Made by a program: the position numbers and the translations under genes
Source of the DNA: Bacteroidota bacterium
GTDB lineage: Bacteria; Bacteroidota; Bacteroidia; Bacteroidales; B39-G9
Assembly (NCBI GenBank): GCA_015222055.1
Contig: JADFUR010000045.1
Location: 6,860-70,859, forward strand
DNA length: 64,000 nucleotides
Reading direction: 5' to 3'
Part shown: in pieces, positions 49,871 through 59,541 of the stretch
Numbering within the stretch: the stretch's first letter is position 1
Layout of the letters: every line of letters starts with the position of its first letter
The notes under the pieces: model-generated
What the model was told of the DNA's origin: nothing
Databases searched by the model: none
What the model saw: the letters and a program-made list of their open reading frames with translations, nothing else

Positions 49871-52800
49871 ATGAATGAGCCTGTACTAAACGCATTAATG
49901 CACTTATTTGCAATAGTTGCTAATGTAAACGGACCTAAAGTTTCTGACATTGGTCGTAGTATTGTCGAATCTTTTTTAAGAGAAAATATCCCGCACATAA
50001 AAATTGAAAACTATCTCCAATTATTTGATGGATATATAGCTAAATGTCACGAAAACAAAGTTCAATCTAAATCCATTTTAGAAAACCATGAAGAATTAAA
50101 AAATTTATGTGTTCAATTAACTTGCGGTCTTCACAAAAACAAAAGGGTAATAATTTATCTTCGATTATTAGAGTTTGTTAACGAAGACAATATTGTAAGT
50201 CCCGATGAAATTGAAATATTATCAGTAATCTCTCTGGCGTTCAATATAGATAAAACCGAAAAAAAAAATTGTGAGGCTTTTATTCTCAACAAAAACATTG
50301 AACCTCTTGAAAGAAAGAGGCTTCTTATTATTGAAAGAAAAAAACAAGACAAACCGTCCAAAACAAACCCTTTTAATCTTGAAAAAAAAACATCGCAATC
50401 TGACACCAAAACAAAAAGACTATATATTGAAAATTTTGAAGGACGAATAAATGTTTTATTCTTAAAAAGTATAAATTTATTTATAATAAAATATTTTGGG
50501 GCAGATTTCCTATCTCTTAAAGGCAAAAACATCTTGCCCGGCAAATTTTATATTTTAGACAATGGCTCCGTAATAAAAGGACAAAACATAAAACCTTTAT
50601 ACTACAATGACATTACGGTAAAATTTTTTAAAGAAGAAACAAAAACTCAAATTGTTCTTACCGGAGAAGAAATTGAATTCAAATTTTTTAACAGTGATAA
50701 CGGTATTAAACCATTTTCTTTTTCTGAGGAATCCGGTCAGTTAATTAGTATAATGGGGGGGAGTGGAGTTGGGAAATCGACCCTGCTCAATGTTCTAAAT
50801 GGAAGATTACCATTAAAAAAAGGCAAAATTGATATTAACGGCTTTGATATTCACAAAAACAAAATGTTGATAAACGGCGTTATTGGATATGTTCCCCAAG
50901 ACGACTTACTATTTAACGAACTAACCGTTTATCAAAATTTATATTATAATGCTAAATTGTGTTTTGGCAAATCTTCCGAAAAAAAAATAAATGAAATTGT
51001 AAAAAACATACTCCACGATTTACAATTAACAGACATTAAAAATTTTACAGTAGGAAATCCATTAAAAAAAATTATTAGTGGAGGACAAAGAAAAAGAATA
51101 AATATTGCTCTTGAGTTAATGAGAGAACCATCTATTCTATTTATTGATGAGCCCACATCCGGCTTGTCGTCAAGGGATTCCGAAATTGTAATAACTCTTT
51201 TAAAACAGCTTGCATTAAAAGGAAAACTAATATTCGCAAATATTCATCAGCCATCATCAGCTATTTTTAAACTTTTTGACAAACTCTGGTTACTTGACAA
51301 AGGTGGATATGTAATATATTCAGGCAATCCTATCGAAGCATTAGAATATTTTAAAACCATAAGTACAAATATTGATGCTTTAGAATCGGAATGTCCTTCA
51401 TGTGGAAACGTCAATGTTGAACAAATATTACAAATTATTGAATATCACACTATTGACGAAACTGGTAAATATTCTTTTGAGCGAAAGATACAACCAGAAG
51501 AATGGTATAATCATTACTGTAAAAATTTTGGGCCCAGTTTTATACGAAAAAATTCCGAAAAAAAACTTCCCGCTAATAATTTTAAAATACCTGATAGAAA
51601 AAATCAATTTAAAATATTTAGCATTAGAAATTTGTGTACGAAATTAACTAACACACAATATTTATTTATAAATTTTCTTGAAGCTCCTGTGCTAGCTTTT
51701 ATTCTGGCATATTTTACAAAATATGTAAGTGTTAACGATTATGTTTTTTCTGACAATAAAAACATTCCGGCTTATCTGTTTATGAGTATTATTGTTTCCC
51801 TATTTATTGGGCTTACCGTTAGTTCTGAAGAAATTATTAAAGATAGAAAAATATTAGAACGGGAATCTTTTCTCAACTTAAGTTGGTTCAGCTATATAAA
51901 TTCTAAAATTATATTTTTATTTGTTGTCTCAGCTATACAAACATTAACTTTTGTGCTTGTTGGCAACTCCATTCTAGAAATAAAAGGGATGCTATTCCCT
52001 TACTGGTTAATTTTATTCAGTACTTCATGCTTTGCAAATTTGCTTGGTTTAAACATTTCTTCGGGATTAGATTCTGTAATTAATATTTATATTCTCGTTC
52101 CATTCATTCTTATTCCACAAATAATGATGAGTGGTGTGATAGTTCACTTTGACGATTTACATAAAAGTCTTACAAAAAGAATTTATGTCCCCTTGGTTGG
52201 CGATGTAATGACCTCTCGCTGGGCATACGAGGCAATAGCTGTTAAACAATTTAAAGACAATAAATATGAAAAAATATTTTACGAATATGAAAAAGAAATA
52301 AGTGATGCTACTTATCTGGCAACTTTTTTAATACCTCAATTACAATCGAAGGTTGAAGAATGCGACAGGAACATTCAATTCTTACACAACAAAAATTTAT
52401 TAACAAAAAATCTCAGTCTAATAAAAAATGAAATTCTAAAACTTGAAAAAAGGTACGATATTCTTCCTTATGAATATGTCGATTATCTTGTAGAATCTCG
52501 TTTTGACGAAAGAATTGCTGAAGAAACATTTGATTACTTAGAGTTTATTAAAATTAACAGTAATGAAAAATCAAAAGCAGCATCTTCGGCAAAAGACAAT
52601 AGATATCTTTATTTGGCAGATTCCCTTGGCAAAGAAAATATTTATCAACTAATGCATGATTATTACAATAAAGATCTCGCCGAAATGGTTCTAAATAAAA
52701 GAGAAGTATTAAAAATTTATGAAACAGAAAACCGTTTCGTTCAAAAAAAAGACCCAATATTTATGTTCCCGGAATCAAATTTTGGTCGTGCTCATTTTTT

Positions 52801-52951: not shown

Positions 52952-53009
52952 TTAATTTGTGTGCCACAATTATTGTATTTTAGCAAAAATTGGAATAATC
53001 AATCTACCC

Positions 53010-53441
53010 ATGATAAAACATATAAATTTATTGAGCATAATTTTTTTAATCACCCTGATTACTTCATGTAATGATAATAATTTGCCTGAAAATGACAAGC
53101 TGTTGGGAACGTGGACACGCGTAGGCGATAATTATGCCCGTATGAAAATTTCTGTAAAAAAAGAAAACAATAATTGTGTTGGCAGAATAGTATTTTTACC
53201 TACAATGGCACAAAAAAATGGCTTTGTTTTTAATGATCTTAAATGGAAAAATATAAATAAAATCAATAATAATAAATACTCTTTATCAGATTTTGATATT
53301 ATTGTAAACACATTTGGCGATAGGGTTGTCGAAAAATACAACAAGAGCTTTATCTATTTTATGTCAAAAAATGAAATAAAACTAGAATTTAAAAACAACA
53401 AAAAAAGAATGCAATATTGGGTTAAAAATCAAAATTATTAA
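53010..53441 (+). CDS. Small hypothetical lipoprotein
   Basis: MIKHINLLSIIFLITLITSC|N lipobox. Start moved from the track ORF start at 52959. Confidence 0.6.
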   Translation: MIKHINLLSIIFLITLITSCNDNNLPENDKLLGTWTRVGDNYARMKISVKKENNNCVGRIVFLPTMAQKNGFVFNDLKWKNINKINNNKYSLSDFDIIVNTFGDRVVEKYNKSFIYFMSKNEIKLEFKNNKKRMQYWVKNQNY

Positions 53442-53442
53442 A

Positions 53443-54660
53443 ATGAATAAAACAAAAACCACATTAATTGATTTAATCTTATATAGTTTGCTTTTAACTG
53501 CAACTCCTTTTATTATGTTGCAAAACTATCTGCAATTGTCAATTGCATATTTTTCGAGATTAAGTTTTTCAATCAATAATTTTAGTGTCCCTTATATTTT
53601 GGTAATTGCTTTTGCTTTATTAATTTTTGTGTTTCTCAAATTTCGAAAAACATTAAATAAAAAAACTTTTTACACTCTCCTATTCGTTATTTTTTTAATC
53701 TTTATTGGACATAGTGTTTCCGATTTTTATTTAAACATGAAATTTTACGACCTGCAACAAAATTGGCATTATATTGCTTATAGCATTTTTTCTTTTTTGA
53801 TGTATCGGTATTGTAAAACAAAAAACATTTCTCCAAATAAAATCATTTTAAAAACATTGCTTATTGCTGTCTCATTATCAACTTTCGATGAGGTTTTTCA
53901 ATTATTTCTTTCATCGCGAACCTTTGATATTTCAGATATTGCTAAAGATTTTTGGGGTGCGATAATCGGTGTGATTTTTGTGTTTTTTATTATCGAAAAA
54001 AACATTGTTTTAAAAACAAATTCACAAATTCAACACAAAAAATTCAACGATTATATTAAAAATCCTTTCTCTGTTATTTTTTATTCATTAATACTATCGT
54101 TTTTCTTTCTTATCATATCGCCATTACTGACCGACATAAAATATTGCATTATTACCATTCTAATAACTCTTTTTCTCTTTAGCATTATTTTTTTCGCAAT
54201 TCATTATTTTCAATATAAAACATTCAGGCGTTTCTTTACAATTTTTTTCATAATTGCGGTAATAAGTCAAATAGCCTTTATTCTAAAATATAAAAACAAA
54301 AATATTGTTTATAATGCAAATGGTATAACTGTTTATAAAGGACTTGTTATTCCTTATTTTGATGTTTTAATAAAACCTTCGGGCTGCTATCGATTGGTTG
54401 ACAAAAAACAAATATTTACTCAAACAGATATTTCCACTATTCTTAAATATTCACCCGATATTATTTTAATTGGAAGAGGCATACACGGAAGAGGCGGTGA
54501 AGGCTTTCCTGCTCCTTACGAAGTGCAATTTTTATTCAACTCAAAATTAAAAAGCATGGTTCAGGTCATTAATCTGAAAAATGAACAAGCTTGTGCTGAA
54601 TATAATAAGCTGAAAGCCGAAGGAAAAAATGTTGTTTTTATAATTCATAATACTGACTAA
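53443..54660 (+). CDS. VanZ-like membrane domain fused to a C-terminal Mth938-like (DUF498) domain
   Basis: FDEVFQLFLSSRTFDISDIAKDFWGAIIGV (VanZ motif). C-terminus ..SPDIILIGRG..VQVINLKNEQACAEYNKLKAEGKNVVFIIH resembles Mth938/NDUFAF3-type domains. Confidence 0.6.
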   Translation: MNKTKTTLIDLILYSLLLTATPFIMLQNYLQLSIAYFSRLSFSINNFSVPYILVIAFALLIFVFLKFRKTLNKKTFYTLLFVIFLIFIGHSVSDFYLNMKFYDLQQNWHYIAYSIFSFLMYRYCKTKNISPNKIILKTLLIAVSLSTFDEVFQLFLSSRTFDISDIAKDFWGAIIGVIFVFFIIEKNIVLKTNSQIQHKKFNDYIKNPFSVIFYSLILSFFFLIISPLLTDIKYCIITILITLFLFSIIFFAIHYFQYKTFRRFFTIFFIIAVISQIAFILKYKNKNIVYNANGITVYKGLVIPYFDVLIKPSGCYRLVDKKQIFTQTDISTILKYSPDIILIGRGIHGRGGEGFPAPYEVQFLFNSKLKSMVQVINLKNEQACAEYNKLKAEGKNVVFIIHNTD

Positions 54661-54699
54661 AAAATGGAGTTTGTGTAATTTTAATGTGGGTGAAGTAAC

Positions 54700-54790
54700 G
54701 GGGAAAGGCTAAAGGGGAAAGGCTAAAGGCTAAAGGCTAAAGGGGAAAGGGGAAAGGCTAAGGTTAAAAGGGGAAAGAGGAAAGTTAAAA
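54700..54790 (+). repeat. Tandem array of 13 heptamers (GGGGAAA / GGCTAAA and variants)
   Basis: Reads GGGGAAA GGCTAAA GGGGAAA GGCTAAA GGCTAAA GGCTAAA GGGGAAA GGGGAAA GGCTAAG GTTAAAA GGGGAAA GAGGAAA GTTAAAA. Ends 10 nt before the ATG at 54801. Confidence 0.9.
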
Positions 54791-54800
54791 AAAAGAAAAG

Positions 54801-55658
54801 ATGCAAAAAAACAAAAAAAATATTTTCACATACATCATTGTTGGATTTTGGATATTGCTTATTTTTTTTGGGGTAATAGCAAAAACCAATCCCGAACTTG
54901 TTTCTAAAATACCTAGGCAAAAACAAAACCAGATAAGTGAAACAATCACAATAGCCGATATCGATATTTTAAACAAAAAATATGACGATGCTACAAAAAA
55001 ATATATGGGCATTTTAAAAACTAACCCTAATAATGTTGGAGCTTTAATAAAACTCAGCACATTATATCAAAATATTGGCTTTGCCGACAAGTCGATTAGT
55101 CTATTAAACAATAGTTTAAAAAACACAGAATTCCCATATCTCATTTATCAAGAACTTGCACATATTTACTCTGTAAATAAAAATTCAAACAAAGCAATAT
55201 ACTACTACAACAAATCTTTAGAAACAGACCCTTTTGCTATTAATACCTGTTTAGATTTATCTCAATTATATAAAGACAGTCAACAATGGGATAAGCTTAT
55301 TTCAATATTACAAAATGCAGCAAAAAAGAGAACAAACCCGGGCTATTTTTATAGCGGTGCATTAAAACAAAGCTTGTTCACATACAGAAACGATGAAGAG
55401 TTACAACATATTATTCAATTCAAAATTAACGAAAGAATTGATAAAAAAAAGCTTCGCAAATTTGATATAAATATTTTTTACGACTGTCTGAAAAACGATA
55501 AAGAGCTTGCCATAATTTTTAATAAAATTGCTTTTGGATATGCGGCGATGAATAACAATAACGAAGCAATTTCATATTTTAAAAAAGCGTTGCAAGTGTG
55601 GCCTGATTATATGGAGGCTAAGTACAATTTAGAATATTTGCAAGCACAGATAAAATAA
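54801..55658 (+). CDS. Membrane-anchored TPR-repeat protein
   Basis: N-terminal TM IIVGFWILLIFFGVI. Several TPR-like units (..AISYFKKALQVWPDYMEAKYNL). Confidence 0.75.
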   Translation: MQKNKKNIFTYIIVGFWILLIFFGVIAKTNPELVSKIPRQKQNQISETITIADIDILNKKYDDATKKYMGILKTNPNNVGALIKLSTLYQNIGFADKSISLLNNSLKNTEFPYLIYQELAHIYSVNKNSNKAIYYYNKSLETDPFAINTCLDLSQLYKDSQQWDKLISILQNAAKKRTNPGYFYSGALKQSLFTYRNDEELQHIIQFKINERIDKKKLRKFDINIFYDCLKNDKELAIIFNKIAFGYAAMNNNNEAISYFKKALQVWPDYMEAKYNLEYLQAQIK

Positions 55659-55787: not shown

Positions 55788-57239
55788 ATGAAAACTCTAA
55801 AAAATAGTTCTGTCAGATTTCTATGTCTTATGTTATTTTTTCTGACAATTAGTCCTGTTGCACATAGCAATGTTCTTAATCAAACAAATAATAATGATGA
55901 AAAACAATATAAATACACTGATAGTTTTTCGAAATATAATATTAAAACAAAAGGTGTTATCCTTGTTAATGATGATGATACCGGTATTAAAAGCATCTCT
56001 CCCGGAGGTTGTCTAAAATTCAGCAAAAAAACCTTTGGAAACAAAAGAGCTATTATTATTGAAAGCAACACCTCCGGTAAATTACACTTTGAATATTATG
56101 AAGGCTGGAAAGAATTATCGTTTGACCCTGCAGGCAAAGAATGGCTCGCACAAGTGCTTTTAGAAATTGTTAGAATTACCGGAATTGATGCAGAAAGGCG
56201 TACAAAAAGAATCTATTCAACAAAAGGGATTACCGGATTTTTCGAAGAAATACATAAAATAGAATCAAACGATGTTGCATCAAAATATTTTAATGCATTA
56301 TTGAGCAACACACAACTATCCAAAAATGAAATGATTATGACCGTTTCTTCAATATCTGAGGACATTAGTTCAAACACATATTGCGGAAGCTTATATCGTA
56401 AATATAGTAACCTGTTTATGACAAACGATGGTATATCAATTGCCTATTTTAATAGTATTTCAAAACTTTCTTCTAATACAGAAACAGGGGCAGTGCTAAA
56501 AAATATTACAAAAAAAATTAATTTTGATAATCCAAAAGTAACCGAAGCTTATTTCTCTTGTATCGATAGAATGTCAAGTAATACTGAATGTGGTTCGGTA
56601 CTCAGGAATTTAGAACCGACTCAAACACTGAACAACCAGGCATATATCAGATTATTGATAAGTGTAAAAAATTTGAGCTCAAATACAGAAATGGGCTATG
56701 TTATGCGTTCTCTTGATAGCATTAATTTAAGCAATACTGAAGTAAATACTGCATATTTCAACGCTATTAATGTAATGTCGAGCAATACTGAAGCGGGATA
56801 TACCCTTCGCACACTTATAAAAAAGCACAATCTGAATGACCAAAATTACATCAATTTGTTAAGGAGTGTTAAAAGACTTTCTTCTAATACAGAAATGGGT
56901 TCTGTAATGGATAAAGCAATGGGGGCAATGCCTGTGAATGATACTGTTGTTGATGCCTTTTTTAATACCGCAGCTTCTTTTTCTTCAAATACAGAGCTTG
57001 GTGCAATCTTGAGAAAAATGGCTTTAAATAATAAGCTTGATAAATATGCTTGCGGGAAAGTGTTGGATTATGCCCGTAATCTGTCTTCAAATACCGAAAA
57101 AGCATCTGTTTTGATAAGTGTTAGTAAAACAAAATTTATTAAAGATAAAGATATTAAAACTAAATATATTTCTGTTGCAAAAACGCTATCTTCAAATAGT
57201 GATTATAAAAAAGTAATAGATAAATTAATCGAGAAATAA
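55788..57239 (+). CDS. Secreted repeat protein: N-terminal globular domain plus about nine helical repeats of ~32-37 aa centred on SSNTE
   Basis: Signal peptide ..SPVAHS. Recurring motif: ISSNTYCGSLY, LSSNTETGAVL, MSSNTECGSVL, LSSNTEMGYVM, MSSNTEAGYTL, LSSNTEMGSVM, FSSNTELGAIL, LSSNTEKASVL, LSSNSDYKKVI. Confidence 0.8.
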   Translation: MKTLKNSSVRFLCLMLFFLTISPVAHSNVLNQTNNNDEKQYKYTDSFSKYNIKTKGVILVNDDDTGIKSISPGGCLKFSKKTFGNKRAIIIESNTSGKLHFEYYEGWKELSFDPAGKEWLAQVLLEIVRITGIDAERRTKRIYSTKGITGFFEEIHKIESNDVASKYFNALLSNTQLSKNEMIMTVSSISEDISSNTYCGSLYRKYSNLFMTNDGISIAYFNSISKLSSNTETGAVLKNITKKINFDNPKVTEAYFSCIDRMSSNTECGSVLRNLEPTQTLNNQAYIRLLISVKNLSSNTEMGYVMRSLDSINLSNTEVNTAYFNAINVMSSNTEAGYTLRTLIKKHNLNDQNYINLLRSVKRLSSNTEMGSVMDKAMGAMPVNDTVVDAFFNTAASFSSNTELGAILRKMALNNKLDKYACGKVLDYARNLSSNTEKASVLISVSKTKFIKDKDIKTKYISVAKTLSSNSDYKKVIDKLIEK

Positions 57240-57436: not shown

Positions 57437-58498
57437 ATGTCGGGGATTTGGAAAAACATAATTATTAATACAATACTTGCCATTGCTTTATTCATTTACT
57501 TTGTTTACAGCGAAAGTAGTATTACTCCTGATATTACCAAAATTTGGCTTAGCCTGCTGTTAACAATCTTTTTTGTAAACATTAGTGGTATTATCATTGT
57601 TTCCATTAGCCACATTTTTAACCGGATTATACTATGGAATAAACAAATTACTTTGCGTTTTTTTTGCGAATCCATAACAATTTTATTAATCCTTTTAATT
57701 ACCGGCTATATTTTTACAAAAGTATGGTTAGTTCATATACTTCACGTAAACGAAGGAAGCAGTTTCTGGGTGGATTACCGCAATGCAGGAATCAAATTTT
57801 CAATTATTTCAATAGTTATTGCCAATATATATTCAATTATTAATTTTTCTTTCTTTTCATATAACCAATATTTTTTAGTAAAGATTGCAGCTATAAAATA
57901 TAATATTGAACAAAAACGCCTTCAATTTGAATCATTAAAAAATCAGTTAAGCCCACATTATCTTTTTAACTCATTGAATACAATATCTTCGCTTATTTAC
58001 AAAGATGTAGGCGTTTCTGAGGCTTATATCCGACATCTCACACAAACCTTCAACTACATACTCAATACGAATGAAAACGGACTTGTTTTGGTAAAAAATG
58101 AATTAGCTGCAATACATTCCTATTTTTCAATGCAAAAAATAAAATATGAAAACTTAATTAATTTAAGAATTGATTTATCTTCCGAAATAGAAAAAACTTT
58201 TATTCCGCCCTTGTGTCTTCAGATACTTCTTGAAAATTCATTCAAACATAACAATGTGAGTAATAAAAATCATCTGCAGATTGAAGTTTTTACAGAAAAA
58301 TCTAAATATATTGTTGTAAAAAATAATATAATACCCAAACAAAATTATTTTAAAAACAATAACTCGTCTTTTAAGATTGGAATTGAAAACATAAAAAAAC
58401 GGTATAAATATTTTACAAATAAGGATATTATTATTGATGTTGATGATAACAGCTTTATTGTTAAATTACCATTAATTATAAAAAAAGAAAAAATTTGA
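57437..58498 (+). CDS. LytS/YehU-type membrane sensor histidine kinase
   Basis: Five or so TM segments. H-box LKNQLSPHYLFNSLNTI (His codon 57956-57958). N-box LLENSFKHN. Confidence 0.85.
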   Translation: MSGIWKNIIINTILAIALFIYFVYSESSITPDITKIWLSLLLTIFFVNISGIIIVSISHIFNRIILWNKQITLRFFCESITILLILLITGYIFTKVWLVHILHVNEGSSFWVDYRNAGIKFSIISIVIANIYSIINFSFFSYNQYFLVKIAAIKYNIEQKRLQFESLKNQLSPHYLFNSLNTISSLIYKDVGVSEAYIRHLTQTFNYILNTNENGLVLVKNELAAIHSYFSMQKIKYENLINLRIDLSSEIEKTFIPPLCLQILLENSFKHNNVSNKNHLQIEVFTEKSKYIVVKNNIIPKQNYFKNNNSSFKIGIENIKKRYKYFTNKDIIIDVDDNSFIVKLPLIIKKEKI

Positions 58499-59541
58499 AC
58501 AATAAATTCTTCCATAATAATGCAGTCTTCAGAATTGTAGCTCCGGTATTTAGCGGGCTTATTATGTATTTTATGATACTTATGTTCTTTGATTCTGTTA
58601 ATCTAATTTTTGACGATTTTTTTAGCGAGGAAATTATGTTTGTGATAGCTCTCACATTTATTTTATCCGAATGTCTTCGATTATGTATTCTTTTCTTAAA
58701 TAAAAAAAATGTTTTTAACAAAAAAATAAAGAGCAGAATTATTTATCAAATTATATTTACATCCGTTTTATCTGTATTTCTTGTATCAATACTATTACAT
58801 CTCTATTTCGTTTTGATAGTAGGTTTTAGCACTATCAAAACAGAGCTTATTGTTTTCAATTGTTTATATCTATTAGTCGTATTTTTATATAATTTATTTT
58901 ATTTCAGCATTAAATTTATTAATCTAAAAAATGAAGAAAAAATTATTGAGGAAAATCAATTAAAAAGAAATCTTGAACTTAAAATACAAACATATAAAAC
59001 ACAAATTAATCCAAATTTGTTATTCAAAAGTCTTGAAACAATAATATCGGAATTGTATTGTAATAAGGAATCTGCCGATGAGTTAATTATTGGGCTTTCA
59101 AAAATATACAGATACACACTTAACAACAGATTCAACGACCTTGTATTGGTAAAAGATGAATTAGATTCGCTAACATATTTTATTAATATTTTAAATGTTC
59201 AGTATAATGGAAATATAAATTTTGATATTCAGATTGATTCTCATTCCGCGAAATCAGAAATTGTACCAGGCACATTTCTCGCTATTGCGGAAAAAGCTGT
59301 AGAAGAAAATATTATTACCAATTCGCTTCCTCTTAATATTTCTGTCAAAAGCACTGATAATTCTATTGTTGTTAAATATAAAAACAACAGCCATATTGTT
59401 AATAAAAACAATTCTAATAATCGTATAAAATATATAGAGAACGCTTATAATTATTTTTCACAAAATAGTTTTATTATTAATGAGGAGCAGGGATTTAAAA
59501 TTTATAAAATAACACTTTTAAACGTTGAAGAAGAAATTTAA
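58495..59541 (+). CDS. LytS/YehU-type kinase paralogue lacking the phospho-acceptor His (probable pseudokinase)
   Basis: Same architecture, but the H-box reads TQINPNLLFKSLETI (Asn codon 59014-59016 in place of His). The N-box is degenerate (IAEKAVEEN). TTG start overlaps the upstream TGA. Confidence 0.7.
   Translation: MNNKFFHNNAVFRIVAPVFSGLIMYFMILMFFDSVNLIFDDFFSEEIMFVIALTFILSECLRLCILFLNKKNVFNKKIKSRIIYQIIFTSVLSVFLVSILLHLYFVLIVGFSTIKTELIVFNCLYLLVVFLYNLFYFSIKFINLKNEEKIIEENQLKRNLELKIQTYKTQINPNLLFKSLETIISELYCNKESADELIIGLSKIYRYTLNNRFNDLVLVKDELDSLTYFINILNVQYNGNINFDIQIDSHSAKSEIVPGTFLAIAEKAVEENIITNSLPLNISVKSTDNSIVVKYKNNSHIVNKNNSNNRIKYIENAYNYFSQNSFIINEEQGFKIYKITLLNVEEEI

Follow-up and report, generated by a model that had tools for sequence, protein, structure and literature searches.

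The tandem array of 13 heptamers that separates a VanZ-DUF498 gene from a TPR gene in this Bacteroidota genome is best explained as a lineage-specific, G-rich heptanucleotide SSR, which would have grown by slippage within an operon junction and would be tolerated there as an intercistronic spacer; the probability given to this reading is roughly two in three (0.68). A dedicated regulatory role is not indicated. That the array has no function is an assumption and not a result, because the published class of such repeats shows a non-random and unexplained placement. Intergenic heptamer arrays have already been described in bacteria, including Bacteroidetes, and the present one is not a new kind of element. 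Its value is that of a clean natural example, a heptamer repeat apparently born in an operon junction whose ancestral state is known (3–4 nt, from eight relatives), and it could be used to study how such repeats begin and how SD-less Bacteroidia tolerate the loss of stop/start coupling. In what follows, the window is the whole stretch of DNA that was analysed, 64 kb in length.

The array and its periodicity

The array occupies positions 54700–54790 of the plus strand, and its units are, in order, GGGGAAA, GGCTAAA, GGGGAAA, GGCTAAA, GGCTAAA, GGCTAAA, GGGGAAA, GGGGAAA, GGCTAAG, GTTAAAA, GGGGAAA, GAGGAAA and GTTAAAA (five GGGGAAA, four GGCTAAA, one GGCTAAG, two GTTAAAA and one GAGGAAA). It is followed by AAAAGAAAAG and then by the ATG of the TPR gene at 54801, which places its end 10 nt before the start codon. 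A preliminary description of this DNA had reported these units at this distance from the TPR gene, and all 13 were confirmed letter for letter. The same description had called the tract purine-rich, with five GGGG runs in otherwise AT-rich DNA, and had stated that it fills most of the 140-nt gap between the two genes, all of which is borne out: purines make up 85% of the array, its G+C content of 45% compares with approximately 29% for the window, its five GGGG runs fall within 74 nt (at spacings of 10, 24, 3 and 17 nt), and it takes up 91 of the 140 nt.

Tandem Repeats Finder describes the array at three periods, namely 7 nt (12.1 copies, 75% matches, score 65), 14 nt (5.9 copies, 76% matches) and 28 nt (2.9 copies, 88% matches, score 111), and the last of these, in which a block of 28 nt made up of four heptamers occurs approximately three times, is the top-scoring description. 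Lag-7 identity within the array is 62 of 84 positions, compared with a mean of 24.5 (sd 4.9) over the window and a highest value of 42 in the rest of the 64 kb; the maximum was 47 both in 200 shuffles of the whole window and in 10,000 shuffles of the bases of the array (mean 30.7). The 7-nt units are thus arranged head to tail well above chance. With A for GGGGAAA, B for GGCTAAA and C for GTTAAAA, the order of the units can be written as the blocks B-A-B-B, B-A-A-B′ and C-A-A′-C, and this nested periodicity of 7, 14 and 28 nt is the signature of stepwise duplication. Because a period of 28 nt fits better than one of 7 nt, the “two-letter” order probably reflects higher-order duplication and not a code.

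The longest perfect run in the array is three units, and this, together with the 75% of matches, means that the heterogeneous units argue against a high switching rate and for a modest instability. The assembled number of units may be inexact, because the window comes from a short-read MAG. No similar array was found elsewhere in the 64 kb by Tandem Repeats Finder or by motif search, and GGNNAAAGGNNAAA in tandem has no other occurrence in the window.

The operon junction in the window and in its relatives

The three genes of interest form one tightly packed string on the plus strand. A small gene at 52959–53441 (a 160-aa ORF as listed) ends 1 nt 5′ of the start of the VanZ-DUF498 gene at 53443–54660, which encodes a 405-aa fusion membrane protein (Pfam PF04892, 3.1e-09; PF04430, 3.3e-06), and this gene is followed by the TPR gene at 54801–55658, whose 285-aa product has a hydrophobic segment at its N-terminus (Pfam TPR_2, TPR_19 and TPR_1). 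Between the end of the VanZ-DUF498 ORF at 54660 and the first base of the TPR ORF at 54801 lies the 140-nt intercistronic spacer (54661–54800, plus strand). The array begins 39 nt past the VanZ-DUF498 stop and its G-rich strand is the sense strand of the co-directional flanking genes.

Relatives of this locus are few. The TPR protein matches P0001 (IMY72_05815), from an NCBI MAG named ‘Bacteroidetes bacterium’, at 100% identity, the cluster at this identity has one member only, and a collection of 5.8 billion proteins holds only seven other homologues, which are 61–88% identical; look-ups of the exact sequences of the window's own TPR and VanZ-DUF498 proteins returned no record, and these searches brought up no second genome of the species. 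Eight contigs could be compared (L001–L005 and L126–L128): six homologues gave seven of them, and the eighth is a JGI metagenome relative, the one match of the scan of metagenomes with the TPR alignment, at 72% identity and with a junction that is likewise short.

In all eight relatives the distance from the VanZ-DUF498 stop to the TPR ATG is 3–4 nt, whereas it is 140 nt in the window. The relatives' junctions read TAAacagATG, TAAaaagATG, TAGacagATG, TAAaaaaATG or TAAacaATG, and the sequence on either side is conserved between them and the window. A VanZ-DUF498 gene of 405 aa lies directly 5′ of the TPR gene wherever a relative's contig is long enough (in L003 it is present as a cut fragment only), and the counterpart of the small gene encodes 142–144 aa and is followed in most of them by a gap of 1–4 nt. 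The start assigned to the TPR gene is backed by homology, given that the relatives' proteins open with ATGCAAAAAAAC or similar at the same point. Heptamer periodicity is absent from the approximately 37 kb of the relatives' contigs, and the array, missing in eight of eight, shows the presence/absence pattern of an SSR.

As judged from these contigs, the ancestral junction was 3–4 nt long; since this is the length in every relative, the comparison identifies approximately 136 nt, including the array, as a gain particular to this lineage and placed within the operon junction. That the spacer as a whole was inserted recently could not be seen by the preliminary description. The gained DNA consists of a non-repetitive head of 36–40 nt (annotated at 54659–54699, plus strand), the 91-nt array and the A-rich tail AAAAAAAAGAAAAG (54787–54800, plus strand, recognized by leader composition), which lies immediately 5′ of the TPR ATG. 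It is confined to the spacer and leaves both ORFs unaltered: the 3′ end and the stop codon of the VanZ-DUF498 gene are unchanged (pairwise dN/dS of 0.17) and the TPR ORF is intact (0.16–0.17).

On the other side of the TPR gene the order of genes is not shared. Synteny is lost at once 3′ of it in L001, L004, L005 and L126, where the next gene encodes phosphoglucomutase on the opposite strand (L001, L126), alanine dehydrogenase (L004) or ribosomal L21/L27 (L005). The gene in this place in the window (55788–57239) encodes a protein of 483 aa whose N-terminus resembles a signal peptide and in which an internal repeat of roughly 36–40 aa, marked by ‘SSNTE.G’ (for example LSSNTEMGSVM and MSSNTEAGYTL), occurs about ten times; the protein has no Pfam match at E ≤ 0.01. 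Further on, two adjacent and overlapping LytS-type sensor genes are found (57437–58498 and 58495–59541), the first with His_kinase (PF06580) and the second apparently paralogous to it.

Heptamer repeats described elsewhere

Rehm et al. (2015) described G-rich heptamers in Xanthomonas (GGGAATC) and Nostoc (GGGGA(C/T)T) that are found between aligned ORFs, within 50 bp past a stop codon and on the sense strand, that differ extensively in length among close relatives and that are not tied to contingency genes (PMC4692102). The array of the window has the same placement in all three respects. It also shares with those repeats a 7-nt unit opening with a run of G, the property of being gained, lost or resized between related genomes, and a location inside an operon, of which Nostoc offers an example in the 26-unit GGGGATT array that separates pecE from pecF (PMC4692102). 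The differences are that a run of four G occurs in only five of the 13 units here, so that the series of four or more G3+ tracts joined by short loops that a canonical quadruplex requires is lacking; that the unit ends in AAA instead of ATC or ATT; and that there is one copy in 64 kb, in a low-GC Bacteroidota MAG, as opposed to a genome-wide family.

Another set of arrays was reported by MacGregor (2015), who found TAACTGA and other heptamers by the start codons of genes in Beggiatoaceae, Cyanobacteria and five Bacteroidetes; two of these Bacteroidetes, Gramella and Aequorivita, carry long arrays at places where their nearest relatives have, between the same neighbours, an intergenic region that is shorter and repeat-free (PMC4679880). 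The array of the window resembles these in its position directly 5′ of a start codon, in its mixed heptamers and in its pattern of gain, which is that of Gramella and Aequorivita. It differs in unit sequence and from the 169 sets per genome of Beggiatoaceae, which are strongly oriented forward to start codons, an orientation bias that GGNNAAA arrays do not have among the matches listed.

Only for hmw1A has the mechanism of a heptamer repeat been worked out. In hmw1A and hmw2A of Haemophilus influenzae the phase-variable 5′-UTR repeat (ATCTTTC)n is perfect, pairs with a G-rich partner to give a long RNase III hairpin and varies within populations (PMC12721329). The units of the present array are heterogeneous (75% matches) and its RNA is predicted to be unstructured (z-score +2.14), so that neither the homogeneity nor the hairpin of the hmw repeats is found here. 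In brief, the array fits the known class by the size and the G-rich start of its unit, by where it is placed and by how it has evolved, and it fails on the quadruplex of the Rehm repeats and on the hairpin and homogeneity of the hmw repeats.

The older examples are the short tandemly repeated repetitive (STRR) heptamers of cyanobacteria, reportedly described by Mazel and colleagues in 1990. These are likewise tandem 7-nt units in non-coding DNA, but the STRR families are highly repeated genome-wide and have other unit sequences. Polymerase slippage has been proposed as the reason why heptamers are favoured. According to the account given of it in PMC4692102, the study of Mrazek et al. (2007) found heptamers to be over-represented among long prokaryotic repeats.

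A scan for three or more units of GG[GC][GT]AAA, with one genome per species, found at least 120 loci, distributed over Nostoc and other Cyanobacteria, Bacteroidota, Gammaproteobacteria, Desulfobacterota, Acidobacteriota and an ANME archaeon; among the matches listed, the Bacteroidota are represented by Rikenellaceae, Paludibacteraceae, Lentimicrobium, Prevotella, Saprospiraceae and Chitinophagales. Again among the matches listed, 65 of 89 arrays are intergenic by a crude ORF call. In 23 cases the two neighbouring genes are both antisense to the G-rich strand, in 11 they both run in its sense, and 17 cases are mixed; the arrays are thus without the sense-strand preference that an enhancer acting at the RNA level would predict. 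Arrays of mixed units are common among these matches (GGGG/GGCG in L006 and L116, GGGT/GGTT in L077, GGTT/GGCT in L043), they often adjoin other heptamer arrays, and the very pair GGGGAAA/GGCTAAA recurs in Stenomitos (L064). A viral scan for GGGGAAAGGCTAAAGG gave 36 matches: in 34 the motif occurs once, by chance, in non-repetitive DNA, and the other two are unrelated compound heptamer arrays.

Several of these loci have features of their own. In loci L006–L125, where the G-rich strand is sense past a gene, the arrays often begin near the stop codon (many at −2 to 40 nt) and the distance to a downstream start on the same strand is mostly greater than 100 nt, a stop-proximal asymmetry that echoes the one reported by Rehm et al. 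In Nostoc linckia z4 (L077, 4740–4934) a 23-unit GGGTAAA/GGTTAAA array stands beside an inverted GGGGAAA array, with which it could form a long hairpin. There are also compound regions (L012, L033, L024 and L103) in which GGNNAAA arrays adjoin arrays of GGCAATA, GTTTGTR or GTGAYTA.

Initiation context, competing readings and origin

The insertion was examined for other kinds of signal. A coding reading was rejected, since the TAA of GGCTAAA on the plus strand and the TAG of TTTAGCC on the minus strand come back every 7 nt and place stops in every frame; the sole ORF that enters the array, over its 3′ two-thirds, is a mechanical minus-strand ORF of 67 aa (54723–54926). Rfam models, at gathering and at permissive thresholds (E up to 10), gave only sub-threshold noise from eukaryotic snoRNAs and IRESs. 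Scans of the insertion for sigma-70-type promoters and for intrinsic terminators found no match, and the sole candidate for a Bacteroidetes-type −33/−7 promoter (TTTG/TAnnTTTG) was TAATTTTA at 54676, which has the wrong spacing, its TTTG being 6 nt upstream. RNA spanning 54661–54830 has a minimum free energy of −9.9 kcal/mol, a z-score of +2.14 and an empty centroid structure, and 199 of 200 shuffled sequences fold at least equally well; the array is therefore non-coding and, by this prediction, lies outside structured RNA and known elements. Two further candidates were set aside. One is intrinsic bending of the DNA, for which the A3 tracts, repeated every 7 bp, are out of helix phase; no net curvature would be expected from them because this spacing amounts to three tracts per two turns. 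The other is a CsrB- or TRAP-like protein sponge, there being no hairpins that present GGA, no such element in the relatives and a single copy in the window. CsrA is not known to be typical of Bacteroidota.

The context in which the TPR gene would be translated can be read from the leaders of the 51 putative gene starts in the window. At each position from −30 to −1, G is found in 0–14% of them, A reaches 78% at −11 and 53–61% at −10, −12 and −13, and none of the 51 has an SD-like motif (GGAG, GAGG or AGGA) between −20 and −4, which is a very clean SD-less Bacteroidia pattern. Initiation in Bacteroidetes is SD-less and A-dependent, and an A at −3 acts positively (PMC6847099). The TPR leader holds 37% G over −100 to −1, the highest value among the genes scored (the median is 10%), and the array does not have the composition of the genome's other leaders, to which only 54787–54800 conforms. 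This tail has A at −2 to −5 and −7 to −14, and G at −1 and −6. It is probably the translation-initiation context of the TPR gene, which fits both the enrichment of A at −10 to −13 across the window and the effect of A at −3 (PMC6847099).

These leaders bear directly on one group of alternatives, in which the array would either be bound at its repeated units by a protein that recognizes RNA or DNA (S1, cold-shock or CsrA-like) or enhance translation through its A/G-rich sequence. The motif is indeed iterated, adjoins a start codon and contains several GGA triplets, and a post-transcriptional role has been proposed for the heptamer repeats of Beggiatoaceae and some Bacteroidetes (PMC4679880), binding of this sort by S1, cold-shock or CsrA-like proteins having been suggested for the TAACTGA repeats. 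Yet the element is missing in all eight relatives that have the same operon and occurs once in 64 kb, and the arrays found across phyla, more often antisense than sense among the matches listed, show no preference for the transcribed strand. The enhancer put forward in the preliminary description is contradicted by the scarcity of G and of SD-like motifs in the leaders, among which that of the TPR gene is the top outlier, and by relatives that translate TPR from a junction of 3–4 nt without such a tract; the iterated binding site proposed there finds no support either, since it lacks conservation in relatives and no partner was identified. The whole group is accordingly very improbable. Scarcely better placed is the idea, also raised in that description, of a G-quadruplex in DNA or RNA that affects TPR transcription or translation. 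Related G-rich heptamers do fold into quadruplexes in vitro (PMC4692102), and the array has three overlapping two-tetrad (GG) motifs of the form G2+N1–7, with a maximum G4Hunter score of 1.56 over 54684–54775. Two-tetrad motifs are, however, all that it offers: no part of the window contains a G3+ motif, even with loops of up to 12 nt, the GGGG runs are 10, 24, 3 and 17 nt apart, the published quadruplex repeats carry a run of three or four G in each unit and favour exactly four units, ViennaRNA with its quadruplex option predicts none in the array, and the top score of the window (1.72, at 50739–50781) belongs to a site inside the gene for a 1026-aa ABC transporter. The evidence for a quadruplex is weak, and this reading carries little probability.

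The main rival to the preferred reading is a copy-number dial, that is, an expression-level or phase variator in which slippage alters the length of the leader or spacer and so tunes the expression of TPR. It draws on the position of the repeat, 10 nt 5′ of a start codon, on the recency of its gain relative to the relatives, and on the precedent of heptamers whose expression is inversely proportional to repeat number (PMC12721329). Heterogeneous units with perfect runs of no more than three would nonetheless lower the rate of slippage, no promoter was found upstream within the insert, which leaves a change of spacing without an obvious target, the hmw mechanism requires a long 5′-UTR hairpin that the predicted RNA does not have, and TPR, in an environmental MAG, is a conserved operon member and not a typical contingency gene; a variator is considered unlikely. 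It is improbable that mixed-unit GGNNAAA arrays form a functional class, for example as C-poor and purine-rich insulators or as targets of a conserved binder. If they did, an insulator would prevent intercistronic RNA that is not translated from folding and would leave it with few Rho-loading sites, and the present array would be a selectable gain of recent date by which the expression of TPR is uncoupled and retuned relative to VanZ-DUF498, its unit number being an evolvable dial. Least probable of all is an artefact of assembly or the footprint of a mobile, MITE-like element. Tandem repeats are error-prone in the assembly of short-read MAGs such as this one, and many of the heptamer arrays in public MAGs are at contig ends among the matches listed, but here synteny and register with the relatives are kept on either side, and a chimera could only have arisen by joining this very junction again; the 91 nt of the array are shorter than a typical read. 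As for a mobile element, the two borders resemble each other loosely (AAAA(G)ATG), which might be taken for a target duplication; the resemblance is of low complexity only, the ends of the insert have no terminal inverted repeats, and its head has no further copy in the window at up to three mismatches.

Under the reading of the array as a slippage-grown SSR, slipped-strand mispairing would have started the repeat within the VanZ-DUF498/TPR stop/start junction and then enlarged it, and as far as origin is concerned the slipped-strand repeat of the preliminary description is well supported, both by the nested periodicity and by the absence from eight relatives. Growth was probably seeded by local sequence. 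The VanZ-DUF498 gene ends in GACTAAA, one mismatch from the unit GGCTAAA, which may be an amplified copy of this stop-codon context. The head may in turn have come from a tandem duplication of the final 35 nt or so of the gene and have decayed since, as suggested by the 18 of 22 matches between 54659–54680 and 54624–54645, in the gene's 3′ end, at an offset of 35 nt (alignment score 24, P = 0.003 with the shuffled head against the adjacent 61 nt, a score that several unrelated tiles of the window equal). These local steps are weak on statistical grounds, and the link between GACTAAA and GGCTAAA is a single near-match. The GGGG variant would have appeared afterwards, and re-duplication of blocks of 14 and 28 nt would have produced the “two-letter” order. 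A further point against this explanation is that there is a single array in 64 kb, whereas the described families of G-rich heptamers are abundant genome-wide.

Once in place, the array would be transcribed as an intercistronic spacer, and the stop/start coupling of TPR would be replaced by independent initiation on the A-rich last 14 nt or so. Its tolerance would follow from the fact that the spacer is purine-rich, C-poor and predicted to be unfolded, which would leave the initiation site open. As in other repeats of this kind, the length of the array is expected to differ between strains.

The head of the insertion contains two very short ORFs. An ATG at 54664, 3 nt past the VanZ-DUF498 stop and thus at the position of the TPR ATG in the relatives, opens a mini-ORF of only four codons (54664–54678; ATG GAG TTT GTG TAA, encoding MEFV), and a second mini-ORF begins at 54684 (ATG TGG GTG AAG TAA). 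Terminating ribosomes might reinitiate at the ATGs of these mini-ORFs, and not at the TPR start 137 nt downstream.
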